This document shows positions 4,340-6,154 of a stretch of 64,000 nucleotides of DNA, piece after piece (position 1 is the first letter of the stretch; every line of letters starts with the position of its first letter). The notes under the pieces are model-generated. The model had not been told where the DNA came from and made no database searches. It saw only the letters and a program-made list of their open reading frames with translations. Source of the stretch: an uncultured Candidatus Saccharibacteria bacterium (GTDB taxonomy: Bacteria; Patescibacteriota; Minisyncoccia; Phycocordibacterales; UBA2100). Location: positions 18,517 to 82,516 of the forward strand of contig CAZWFX010000004.1 in assembly GCA_964633425.1 (NCBI GenBank), read 5' to 3'. Both the position numbers and the translations under genes were made by a program.

Positions 4340-4765
4340 TCAATTGAAGTTGTGAGGATTATAGCCGTTTTCTACGAAATTTCTAGTCGGGGCAAAGAGA
4401 GGCTCCGGAAGGTTATCCCAGTCGAACCAGGCCCAGTTTCCGATCTCCCCCACGGCATCCCGCGGCTCACCGCCCTGCCAGTTAGCCACGAACTGCAATG
4501 TCACCCAATGAGTACCCTTTTCCTTGTCAACATCGTTCAGTACCACCATTAATCGCGGGCGCCCGATCATCAAACCTGTTTCTTCGAGCACCTCCCGCAT
4601 CGCGCCCTCAGTCGGCGTTTCGTACATATCTACCGCACCGCCCGGTACACACCAAGAACCGACCTGACTCCCCTTTTCCCGGCGGCCGAGCAAGACCTTT
4701 CCGTCTTTCACAATGTGAATTGCCGTGCCGACGCGCGGATACGCGTGCTGAAAATCATCCGTCAT
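4340..4765 (-). CDS. NUDIX hydrolase
   Basis: ORF-track entry 4340..5014 trimmed to the internal ATG at 4765, which forms an ATGA overlap with the upstream stop; the Arg-rich N-extension is implausible. Nudix box [23 protein letters not shown]. Confidence 0.85.
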
Positions 4766-5361
4766 ACGAATTCGGCCGCGAGAATTTCTTTTGCTTTTCT
4801 GAGCGCCCGACCGCGATGACTCACGCTGTCGATCTCGGCATCGGTCATTACACCGAATGCTTTTCCGAGATCGCGCGAGATAAACAACTGATCGTAGCCG
4901 AACCCATTTTCTCCGTGCGGCTCGGTTGCGAGCACGCCTTCGGTCACACCGTATGCAAAACGAACTTTGTCCGTTGTCGGATCGTACATCGCTATCACAT
5001 CGCGGTAGCGACATGTCCGCTTTTCAGTCGGCACATCTTTCATCAGATCCAGTAATTGCGCGACCTTTTCAGCGCGAGTTCCTTCAAAATAGTGCGCCGT
5101 CTGGACTCCCATCGCCTCGGGAAAGGCATCAAGTTCGAGACCTGAGTCGTCTGCAACCGCAAGCAGGTTTGTGTGTTTGCCGTACACAAATGCCTTAATA
5201 ATTGCGTGTGCTTCGTAGGTCGTTCCCGGTTCTTCCACGTCGAGTCCGGCAAGTTCAGGAAAATCATTGAGGGTTTTGAACGTGAACGGTGCACCCTTGA
5301 GACCCTCCATAAGGCCGGGAATCTTCCCCTTGTTTCCGGTTGCCAACAGTAGCTCACGCAT
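4762..5361 (-). CDS. rdgB: Non-canonical purine NTP pyrophosphatase (RdgB/HAM1 family)
   Basis: Trimmed to MRELLLATGNKGK. Motifs ATGNKGK, ADDSGLELDA and SHRGRAL are typical of dITP/XTP pyrophosphatases. Confidence 0.85.
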   Translation of the reverse strand: MRELLLATGNKGKIPGLMEGLKGAPFTFKTLNDFPELAGLDVEEPGTTYEAHAIIKAFVYGKHTNLLAVADDSGLELDAFPEAMGVQTAHYFEGTRAEKVAQLLDLMKDVPTEKRTCRYRDVIAMYDPTTDKVRFAYGVTEGVLATEPHGENGFGYDQLFISRDLGKAFGVMTDAEIDSVSHRGRALRKAKEILAAEFV

Positions 5362-5371
5362 AGGCACGATA

Positions 5372-5704
5372 TTACAGCGAGTTCGGATCGATCGCGAATC
5401 CGTGTTTTCGTGCGATCGCAGCAAATGACTCCGCACGAGACCTGATAACTGCGTTGTATTCGGATAACTCTCTTTGGTCTCGCAGTTCCTGCTGCATATG
5501 CTCCCTCGAACTTCTGAACAACATCTCCATGTCCGACGACATGTGATTTTGGATATCGTCCTCGTACTGGGCAGGCGTCGGCGCTTCGGAAAGTGTGTTC
5601 AGCACGCCCTTCATGTGGTCGCTTACGTAGTCAGCGGCATCGAGCGTGTCGTGCATTTCTTTGTAGGCATTTTTTTGAGCAGCTGCGCGATCTTCAAAGG
5701 TCAT
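5372..5704 (-). CDS. Hypothetical protein (110 aa, acidic/helical)
   Basis: Clean ORF wedged between rdgB and the second NUDIX gene, with gaps of a few nt. No recognisable motif. Confidence 0.5.
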   Translation of the reverse strand: MTFEDRAAAQKNAYKEMHDTLDAADYVSDHMKGVLNTLSEAPTPAQYEDDIQNHMSSDMEMLFRSSREHMQQELRDQRELSEYNAVIRSRAESFAAIARKHGFAIDPNSL

Positions 5705-5707
5705 GTG

Positions 5708-6154
5708 TTATTTGTTATCAAATCCGTAATTGCTGAACGGAATACCCGTTCGGATGCACCGTAACGCCTGCGCGATGTACGGAATTGTGTTCGCTGGCAG
5801 ATCATCTTCGGCGTAAAACCATAGATCTGAACATTTTTCCGGCTCCTTGTTCGAAAGCTCGCCCTCCCATTCCTCTGCTTCGATGTACACGTCGAAGTAG
5901 GTACGGTCTGGGAACTGACGCTGCATTACGTGCACGATCTTGAGCTCACTGTTCGAAAGATCGAGATTCGCTTCCTCAAACACTTCGCGGATCAATGCTT
6001 GCTCTGCGGTCTCTCCGCGCTCGATATGGCCGGAGACGAGTCCGTAGTTTCCGTCCTCGTGACCGGTATTCTGACGCTGGGAAAGCAAAACAGTATTTCC
6101 GTCTCCACGAAGTACCAGAAACGAGGCTCCGTGGAACAGAAATTTGTCGCTCAT
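5708..6154 (-). CDS. NUDIX hydrolase
   Basis: 148 aa. Nudix box GHIERGETAEQALIREVFEEANL. Starts 2 nt after the atpG stop. Confidence 0.85.
   Translation of the reverse strand: MSDKFLFHGASFLVLRGDGNTVLLSQRQNTGHEDGNYGLVSGHIERGETAEQALIREVFEEANLDLSNSELKIVHVMQRQFPDRTYFDVYIEAEEWEGELSNKEPEKCSDLWFYAEDDLPANTIPYIAQALRCIRTGIPFSNYGFDNK

Follow-up and report, generated by a model that had tools for sequence, protein, structure and literature searches.

The F1Fo ATP synthase (atp) operon in the stretch of DNA analyzed here, a 64-kb window of an assembly deposited as an uncultured Candidatus Saccharibacteria bacterium (64,000 nt; GCA_964633425.1, contig CAZWFX010000004.1, positions 18,517 to 82,516), is opened between the genes for the gamma (atpG) and beta (atpD) subunits by a cassette of four genes, namely NUDIX1, an orphan open reading frame (ORF) of 110 amino acids (aa), a gene of the Ham1/RdgB family (Ham1) and NUDIX2. 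The explanation that we favor is that a house-cleaning cassette occupies the gamma/beta junction, where it would form the end of the upstream atp transcript, that its last gene carries an embedded predicted promoter for atpD and atpC (atpDC), and that its co-expression with the ATP synthase has been selected; we put the probability of this explanation as a whole at roughly 0.6. By sequence comparison, the cassette is bounded on one side by the atpG stop codon and on the other by a conserved sigma-70-like element in the last 15 codons of NUDIX2.

The canonical order of bacterial F1Fo operons is atp(I)BEFHAGDC, with the genes for gamma and beta adjacent. All eight structural atp genes of the window are co-directional and keep the order B-E-F-H-A-G-D-C (Table 1), with atpG not directly followed by atpD and the four cassette genes held in an atpG-atpD gap of 1818 nt; in more distant Paceibacteria gaps of 5–90 nt are found between the two genes. 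The gene order, spacers and domain calls of the cassette had been proposed from the sequence alone and were confirmed from the sequence together with Pfam. The junctions read TAA-cc-ATG between atpG and NUDIX1 (2 nt), TAA-cac-ATG between NUDIX1 and the 110-aa ORF (3 nt), TAA-tatcgtgcct-ATG between the 110-aa ORF and Ham1 (10 nt), an ATGA overlap between Ham1 and NUDIX2 (−4 nt), and TGA-t-ATG between NUDIX2 and atpD (1 nt); the ATG at 5361 was taken as the Ham1 start, the mechanical ORF extending upstream to a GTG. Across the window, spacing between same-strand genes in a crude gene call has a median of 67 nt and is ≤ 10 nt at 22% of the junctions, and five consecutive junctions of ≤ 10 nt therefore make the packing of the cassette tighter than the local norm. 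The GC content of the cassette is slightly lower (0.50–0.53 vs. 0.55–0.60), with no clear foreign signature.

A scan with the gamma protein at one genome per species gave 78 related loci (numbered here with an L), onto all of which the proteins of the window were mapped. Genes in the relatives were called from our own ORFs and tblastn matches, the tree was a simple neighbor-joining tree of alpha, gamma and beta from query-anchored alignments, and taxon labels of metagenome-assembled genomes (MAGs) are those of the depositors. Nearly all 78 loci are labeled as Candidatus Kaiserbacteria, Paceibacterota or Parcubacteria MAGs. Many loci, L001 among them, are titled "uncultured Candidatus Saccharibacteria", and their atp genes cluster with MAGs of these three groups; the Saccharibacteria label on the relatives is probably generic or erroneous, and the genome of the window is, by the affiliation of its atp genes, Kaiserbacteria-like (Paceibacterota), within the Candidate Phyla Radiation (CPR).

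When the 48 loci with a gamma at least 57% identical and atpD on the contig were considered, at least one nucleoside triphosphate (NTP) pyrophosphatase gene was found in the gap of 24, other ORFs only in 15, and nothing in 9, the insert-free gaps measuring 5–140 nt. Among more distant loci with atpD on the contig, such a gene was present in 2 of 18, and this synteny comparison supports the suggestion that the arrangement is a lineage-specific marker. It is not confined to a single genome either, as the close relative L001 has all four cassette genes and aligns collinearly with the window for 14 kb (89–91% nucleotide identity). The clade of the window (L001–L004, L007, L008) has a NUDIX-Ham1-NUDIX content, five loci (L018, L034, L048, L049, L072) have a small orphan followed by Ham1-NUDIX, and in other branches the gap holds Ham1 alone or NUDIX alone. 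Ham1 lies inside the atpG-atpD gap in 17 related loci, its 4-nt overlap with NUDIX2 recurs in every locus with both genes (12 of 12), and the spacing between NUDIX2 and atpD is usually −4 to +5. Look-ups based on Ham1, which are independent of the atpG query, pointed the same way in three out of four cases: homologues with 60, 52, and 49% identity sit between atpG and atpD, and one with 42% does not.

An assembly or binning artefact in the form of a chimeric contig has a practically negligible probability. What speaks for it is the short JGI contig Ga0490019_121206 (L083, 966 nt), which carries an identical 110-aa gene and matches the window only over its positions 457–966, the first 456 nt being unrelated; this contig is itself probably an assembly chimera. 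Against it, the same order is seen in dozens of independent assemblies from different studies, with L001 collinear over the distance given above, and since the arrangement recurs in L001, in L002–L004 and L008 and in many partial versions, it is not an assembly accident.

The insertion of the four genes was not a single event; the comparison of relatives points to layers. NUDIX1 was seen only in L001–L004, L007, L008, and L079–L082, and the order NUDIX1-orphan-Ham1 in L001 and the four short ENA contigs L079–L082. The 110-aa gene is absent from the cassettes of L002, L003, L004, and L008, where homology to the window jumps from 5708–5710 to 5361–5363. On this distribution the Ham1-NUDIX2 pair, which abuts atpD, is the old core of the cassette, NUDIX1 is a younger layer and the 110-aa orphan the newest, both putative additions having been made on the atpG side.

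The border on the atpD side bears a promoter-like site composed of TAGAAA (4385–4380), a 16-nt spacer, and TATAAT (4363–4358), with 10 of 12 consensus positions matched; it falls within the last 15 codons of NUDIX2, and its TATAAT hexamer stands 19 nt before the atpD ATG. No other sigma-70-like match occurs between 2000 and 11600 on either strand, and in the same scan no recognisable promoter was found for the cassette genes themselves. Probably, TAGAAA-16-TATAAT is a sigma-70-type promoter with which atpDC is provided on its own account. In the whole window, both strands included, sites with at least 10 of 12 matches number 10, all of them 7–106 nt upstream of an ORF or tRNA start (tRNA-Val being among the genes so preceded), which makes the consensus predictive in this genome; the site before atpD is the only one of the 10 that lies inside a gene.

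In the relatives, sites were counted within 35 nt of the start codon. Such a site precedes atpD in 29 of 62 relatives, as compared with a mean of 3.95 and a maximum of 11 in shuffled atpD upstream regions, while the counts for other genes of the operon were 1/39 (atpB), 2/57 (atpE), 1/59 (atpF), 3/60 (atpH), 5/75 (atpG), and 0/59 (atpC). The distance between the −10 hexamer and the atpD ATG varies from 6 to 23 nt, whereas the spacing of the two hexamers is fixed at 16–18 nt; such short distances imply leaderless or short-leader mRNAs, if the predicted sites are used. As a separate observation, a promoter-like site also precedes atpA in 15 of 64 relatives (23%; L007, L010–L013, L017, L031, L043, L044, L055, L056, and others), where the codons for the C-terminal Tyr-Asn of atpH read TATAAT and a −35-like hexamer lies upstream. 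The corresponding junction of the window is 8662–8700 on the minus strand; here and in the close relatives the same two residues are encoded by TAC AAC, and no promoter-like site results.

The codon alignment of 17 NUDIX2 orthologues separates DNA-level from protein-level conservation. Synonymous choice collapses only at T127 (ACT in 13/14), R128 (AGA in 10/11), N129 (AAT in 15/15), Y135 (TAT in 14/14), and N136 (AAT in 16/17), and the Asn and Tyr residues at other sites of these genes use mixed codons. Third-position entropy below 0.7 was found, among 136 codon columns and leaving Trp aside, only at T127, N129, Y135, and N136, the codons of the spacer being free. The motif also occurs in non-coding DNA, i.e., in a 28-nt intergenic stretch of L007, in L026, where the NUDIX gene is missing (tagaaattttattaaaaacgagtataatcctcac), in L039 and L064, and in L085 and L086; those of L026, L039, and L064 can be read as promoter-bearing stubs of a lost NUDIX2. 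An extended motif of 16 bases, CTAGAAAT-N15-TATAATCC, is present exactly twice in the window against 0.03 expected, and its second copy (38820–38850, plus strand) precedes by about 105 nt a gene whose product is not translated, tRNA-Glu (38954). Finally, three relatives with 66–70% identical gamma (L012, L028, L030) have no atpD within 2.5–10 kb downstream of atpG, a full split at the gamma/beta junction which requires that atpDC can be transcribed independently. In L012, a gene for a PemK-like toxin follows atpG.

The single transcript assumed by the original prediction holds in part under these observations. Its statement that no hairpin terminators are visible was borne out by a terminator scan, which found no terminator-like sites on the minus strand between 2692 and 7071, and co-transcription of the cassette with atpBEFHAG is plausible, given that the cassette abuts atpG and has no recognisable promoter of its own. 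The continuation into atpDC without an internal promoter did not stand, as it is contradicted, at the level of prediction only, by the site within NUDIX2. We consider it unlikely that one uninterrupted mRNA runs from atpB to atpC with no functional internal promoter, the NUDIX2 motif being then no transcription signal. Spacers of −4 to 10 nt indeed leave no room for a terminator, and relatives that keep atpD adjacent to a coiled-coil orphan in the absence of a promoter-like site indicate that read-through can suffice; this account is nevertheless opposed by the strong enrichment of the bipartite −35/−10 match before atpD, by the synonymous freeze exactly at the two hexamers, by the survival of the motif in non-coding DNA where the NUDIX gene is lost, by the identical extended motif before a tRNA gene and by the three relatives whose separated atpDC requires its own promoter. 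That the 3′-end element of NUDIX2 acts at the RNA level, for instance as a translation-initiation enhancer or a coupling signal for atpD, is very unlikely in our view, even if it is A/U-rich, lies only 6–23 nt from the atpD start codon and no Shine-Dalgarno sequence is visible there. An RNA-level role fits poorly with bipartite conservation around a spacer that is free at synonymous sites, with a variable distance to the ATG combined with a fixed hexamer spacing, with the 16-base motif before tRNA-Glu, and with the similar sites before other genes and tRNA-Val in the window.

The content of the slot changes quickly. Between close pairs of relatives, nucleotide homology extends through 7 kb upstream and 2 kb downstream and is interrupted from the atpG stop codon to about 50 nt before atpD. 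In blastn comparisons with the window it ends at 6157/6158 or at 5708–5710 and resumes at 4381–4387 in L002, L007, and L008, that is exactly at the −35 hexamer, and at 4446–4471 in L004 and L005. Identities of Ham1 and gamma are uncorrelated (Spearman −0.03 over 120 pairs), and in pairs with 90–94% identical gamma, Ham1 is only 43–73% identical. Vertical inheritance of Ham1 together with the atp genes as the sole process was rejected for this reason, and the decoupling means that alleles have been replaced; recombination in the conserved atp flanks is the presumed route. The cassette is hypervariable, with a fast turnover of content between its borders while the atp flanks stay collinear.

Replacement also crosses protein families. 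In L005, a close relative nested in the NUDIX-Ham1-NUDIX clade, a non-homologous ITPase/XTPase of the YjjX type (NTPase_I-T; PF01931, 9.5e−41) takes the place of NUDIX1 and Ham1, and in the distant L053 a CYTH triphosphatase (8.4e−14) lies in the gap. The presence of four unrelated NTP-phosphohydrolase folds (NUDIX, Ham1, YjjX, CYTH) in one slot argues that the function was retained and not just a gene, and this repeated filling suggests that co-expression has been selected and is not accidental. At the atpA/atpG junction, a NUDIX gene was observed in L016 (3359–3748) and L020 (884–1264), and a 145-aa ORF with no Pfam family in L084 (2219–2656).

The same loci were weighed against neutral hitch-hiking, according to which the junction, lying between two very conserved genes, is a hot spot of recombination where any arriving gene is tolerated, and NUDIX and Ham1 predominate owing to one ancestral accident followed by allele exchange through the flanks, without selection for co-expression. 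This is possible but, in our judgment, rather unlikely. It fits the loci that have unrelated or orphan ORFs, among them genes of a kind typical of selfish or accessory DNA (PemK toxin, 23S-rRNA-IVP proteins), and those that have no insert; the uncorrelated Ham1 and gamma identities and the sharp borders, both indicative of allele replacement by recombination, are in line with it as well. Less easily accommodated are the four structurally unrelated families of NTP phosphohydrolases, the YjjX gene standing in for NUDIX1-Ham1 inside a NUDIX-Ham1-NUDIX clade, the further NUDIX gene at the atpA/atpG junction of two genomes and the strong purifying selection on all cassette genes. The ratio of non-synonymous to synonymous substitution rates (dN/dS) against the nearest relative is 0.027 for NUDIX1, 0.07 for the 110-aa orphan, 0.056 for Ham1, and 0.112 for NUDIX2, and values of 0.03–0.11, indicating purifying selection, mean that all four genes are real and functional.

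The encoded enzymes belong to known superfamilies. Both NUDIX proteins, of about 140–150 aa with one NUDIX domain each, exceed the PF00293 cut-off of 21.1 bits (62.2 bits for NUDIX1 and 75.8 for NUDIX2) and are members of the NUDIX hydrolase superfamily; they are paralogues with only about 30% identity to each other. The translations were read against the Nudix box consensus G-x5-E-x7-R-E-U-x-E-E-x-G-U, to which NUDIX2 conforms fully, while the box of NUDIX1, GHIERGETAEQALIREVFEEANL, keeps all catalytic E and R positions and has N in place of the penultimate G. NUDIX1 is a MutT-like single-domain Nudix hydrolase whose best solved relatives are 4kyx, a MutT-like protein of Rickettsia, and Escherichia coli MutT (1mut), whereas NUDIX2 is NUDT1/MTH1-like, with plant NUDT1 (1e−23) followed by NUDT15/MTH1 as best solved relatives. 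Neither reached the cut-offs of the MutT equivalogs NF008044 and TIGR00586 (148 and 97.9 bits), NUDIX1 scoring 46.8 and 41.5 bits and NUDIX2 37.1 and 36.2 bits; by these scores they are similar to MutT without qualifying as its orthologues. Ham1 covers PF01725 almost completely (143 bits, cut-off 22.5; residues 4–192 of 199, profile positions 1–185 of 186) and contains ATGNKGK, DDSGL, and SHRG, which we take to be the catalytic motifs of the family. It matches the NCBIfam models of XTP/dITP diphosphatase at 8.8e−44 and stays under their curated cut-offs (NF011397, 149.2 bits vs. 234; TIGR00042, 120.3 bits vs. 145.35); on these scores it is a divergent member of the family, as expected for a CPR lineage. 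The predicted role of Ham1 and the two NUDIX proteins is that of ITPase- and MutT-type sanitising enzymes, which would hydrolyze non-canonical or oxidized (d)NTPs. The PADLOC models gave only a generic NUDIX-level match, to the candidate PDC-S07 (37–38 bits), and none for Ham1 or the 110-aa orphan; support from PADLOC for a reading of the cassette as a defence island was limited to this generic match.

The 110-aa orphan has no family in Pfam, NCBIfam, PHROG, or PADLOC, and its homologues are few: a word-index search found two proteins, among them P0002, and a HMMER scan of 1.8 billion representatives gave the small homologues P0003 and P0004. Two giant repetitive proteins matched in the same scan were discarded as similar by composition only. 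The AlphaFold2 model is a two-helix hairpin (H3–38 and H44–100; mean local confidence, pLDDT, 76; global confidence, pTM, 0.36, which is low), for which Foldseek found no match in the PDB. Ten other small ORFs in the gaps of relatives likewise lack a Pfam family. The orphan and other small gap ORFs end in a similar C-terminal motif, IA[RK]K.G..[IL].P, but remote homology between them was rejected (hmmsearch E 0.002–0.2 with about 130 sequences, hhalign probability 0.5%). In six loci (L011, L015, L017, L045, L046, L084) the last cassette gene belongs to a conserved family of coiled-coil orphans of 91–117 aa with the C-terminus ...RHEEWIKLIAKKSGVKLP, and it adjoins or overlaps the start of atpD; hhalign found no relation between this family and the 110-aa orphan.

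Taken together, these observations fit a model in which a hairpin followed by a U-tract before atpB is, on folding and scan evidence, the 5′ boundary of the atp transcription unit (fold of 10715–10800, −38.1 kcal/mol, z = −4.4, none of 200 shuffles equally stable). The atpBEFHAG unit would start behind this predicted terminator and have the cassette as its tail; that the two form one transcript is suggested by the cassette having no promoter-like site and from junctions that suit termination-reinitiation, the coupling by which the cassette genes would be translated. Read-through together with the embedded promoter (predicted start near 4351, leader of about 12 nt) would serve atpDC, so that expression of beta and epsilon may be restored downstream of the cargo. 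Because the predicted atpD promoter lies inside NUDIX2, this gene would be locked in place, and where it has been lost a promoter-bearing 3′ stub would survive. If the gamma/beta junction is the boundary between two transcription units, both its tolerance for cargo and the complete splits in three relatives are explained. A place on a constitutively expressed housekeeping operon would give the sanitising enzymes steady expression, and their co-expression with the genes for Fo, alpha, and gamma is likely. Functional coupling to the ATP synthase, which the original prediction had brought forward, is strengthened as an inference by the non-orthologous replacements with YjjX and CYTH.

Several points weigh against this model. 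Promoter, read-through, and translational coupling are each predicted from sequence, and the −35 hexamer TAGAAA matches the consensus at only 4 of 6 positions. The six loci ending in the coiled-coil orphan have no promoter-like site before atpD, so not all relatives have the internal promoter, and in these six read-through must be enough by itself. G-Y-N-P is a motif of the NUDIX subfamily at the protein level too, seen also in plant NUDT1; the conservation is thus partly that of the amino acids, and what is specific to DNA is confined to the freeze of synonymous sites. The slot serves also as a general dumping ground, as the loci with unrelated ORFs only or with nothing attest, and besides the PemK toxin and 23S-rRNA-IVP proteins it holds an RNase-H-like protein, a CDP-alcohol transferase, membrane proteins, and many orphans. 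The pattern of like replacing like could stem from flank recombination among genomes that already carried such genes, and since all NCBIfam equivalog cut-offs were missed, substrates cannot be assigned to the NUDIX proteins.

A closer mechanistic tie, with the cassette as a quality-control module of the nucleotide pool bound to the F1Fo ATPase and the orphans as regulators of F1, seems to us a slim possibility. CPR bacteria are presumed to live on scavenged nucleotides, and the enzymes would then remove inosine or xanthosine triphosphate (ITP, XTP) or damaged NTPs that were imported or were made by a promiscuous F1 from the diphosphates (IDP, XDP), while the fast replacement of alleles would be an adaptation to non-canonical nucleotides that are host-specific or antagonistic. 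The 110-aa and coiled-coil orphans would take over from the inhibitory C-terminal domain that epsilon lacks: the 82-aa product of atpC consists of the N-terminal beta-sandwich and lacks the C-terminal helical inhibitory domain. A short epsilon is also found in L084–L086 (80–83 aa). The delta subunit encoded by atpH (129 aa) aligns to the C-terminal part of OSCP (profile positions 63–167 of 172) and is similarly short in L085 and L086 (128–130 aa).

Under the favored model of a co-expressed house-cleaning cassette with an embedded promoter, the locus is informative in several respects. A gap bearing NTP pyrophosphatases is a clean clade marker for Kaiserbacteria-like CPR genomes. It is also an unreported organization of one of the most conserved bacterial operons: in our literature search we found no paper that links NUDIX, Ham1, or rdgB genes with the atp operon, and none on the atp operons of Kaiserbacteria. 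The locus would show how a foreign gene gets fixed, as neither the gene nor its 3′ stub could be lost once the promoter of the essential atpD lies inside the coding sequence, and the putative relics in L026, L039, and L064 would display this entrenchment directly. To our knowledge, and with no literature search aimed at them, there are no mapped promoters for the Kaiserbacteria-like group; CTAGAAAT-N15-TATAATCC with short or absent leaders offers a testable consensus for this CPR lineage. Reduced CPR bacteria presumably depend on nucleotide salvage, and that unrelated NTP pyrophosphatases were recruited again and again suggests that sanitation of the nucleotide pool is kept at housekeeping expression levels.

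Table 1 Coordinates of the atp operon, the cassette, and predicted signals in the window
Feature	Position	Strand	Basis
atpB (Fo subunit a; first gene of the upstream atp unit)	9845–10636	−	ORF list; syntenic tblastn matches in 39+ loci; ATP-synt_A in relatives
atpE	9536–9763	−	ORF list; tblastn synteny
atpF	9078–9524	−	ORF list; tblastn synteny
atpH (short, 129 aa)	8679–9068	−	ORF list; OSCP match; tblastn synteny
atpA	7096–8661	−	ORF list; tblastn synteny
atpG (gamma)	6157–7071	−	Pfam ATP-synt 5.7e−79
NUDIX1	5708–6154	−	Pfam NUDIX 6.7e−17
110-aa orphan ORF	5372–5704	−	no Pfam family
Ham1/RdgB-family ITPase	4762–5361	−	Pfam Ham1p_like 1.3e−41
NUDIX2	4340–4765	−	Pfam NUDIX 4.2e−21
atpD (beta)	2950–4338	−	Pfam ATP-synt_ab and related beta domains
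atpC (epsilon, 82 aa, beta-sandwich domain only)	2692–2940	−	Pfam ATP-synt_DE_N
Terminator-like hairpin and U-tract between the upstream gene (10810–11439) and atpB	10729–10775	−	terminator scan match 10744–10729; RNA fold
Predicted sigma-70-type promoter of atpDC, within NUDIX2 codons 127–136	4358–4385	−	promoter scan and conservation

The genes around the operon are syntenic in many relatives as well; they encode a 426-aa protein rich in Pro, Ser, and Thr downstream of atpC (1359–2639, minus strand) and proteins of 209 and 294 aa upstream of atpB (10810–12392, minus strand). These flanking proteins are 40–55% identical where gamma is 84% identical. Elsewhere in the window, a full-length match to the Rfam LOOT RNA (RF03000) was found at 41138–41258 on the plus strand (71.6 bits, gathering score 46.4).

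Among known systems, the closest parallel to the break itself is atp1/atp2, in which atpB-atpE, there encoding beta and epsilon, form a separate operon with its own promoter. The window has in common with it the position of the break at gamma/beta and may, if the prediction holds, share a separate promoter for beta and epsilon; in L012, L028, and L030 the separation is complete. With this cyanobacterial and chloroplast organization (Lill & Nelson 1991, as cited in PMC9806626), the window contrasts in that its atpDC is still adjacent, the gap is packed with cargo and the predicted promoter is embedded in the reading frame of the last cargo gene; the two lineages are unrelated, and the break is therefore convergent. 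Regarding the cargo, enzymes of the RdgB/Ham1/ITPA family are expected to hydrolyze ITP, XTP, and dITP to the monophosphate, and in E. coli rdgB is not linked to atp. The Ham1 of the window matches the family profile over its full length (1.3e−41), but it falls below the NCBI equivalog cut-offs and sits in the atp operon, where it overlaps a NUDIX gene with predicted translational coupling. The two NUDIX proteins share size, the single domain, and the Nudix box with MutT, MTH1 (NUDT1), and NUDT15, though they reach no equivalog threshold and NUDIX1 has the N for G exchange in its box. As to the mode of evolution, the pneumococcal capsule loci between dexB and aliA are variable cassettes bracketed by core genes and exchanged through homology of the flanks. 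While the cassette described here is tiny in comparison (0.3–3.5 kb), encodes cytoplasmic house-cleaning enzymes instead of surface structures and lies inside an essential bioenergetic operon, it resembles the capsule loci in its sharp homology borders, in alleles that are decoupled from the phylogeny of the flanks and in its non-orthologous replacements.

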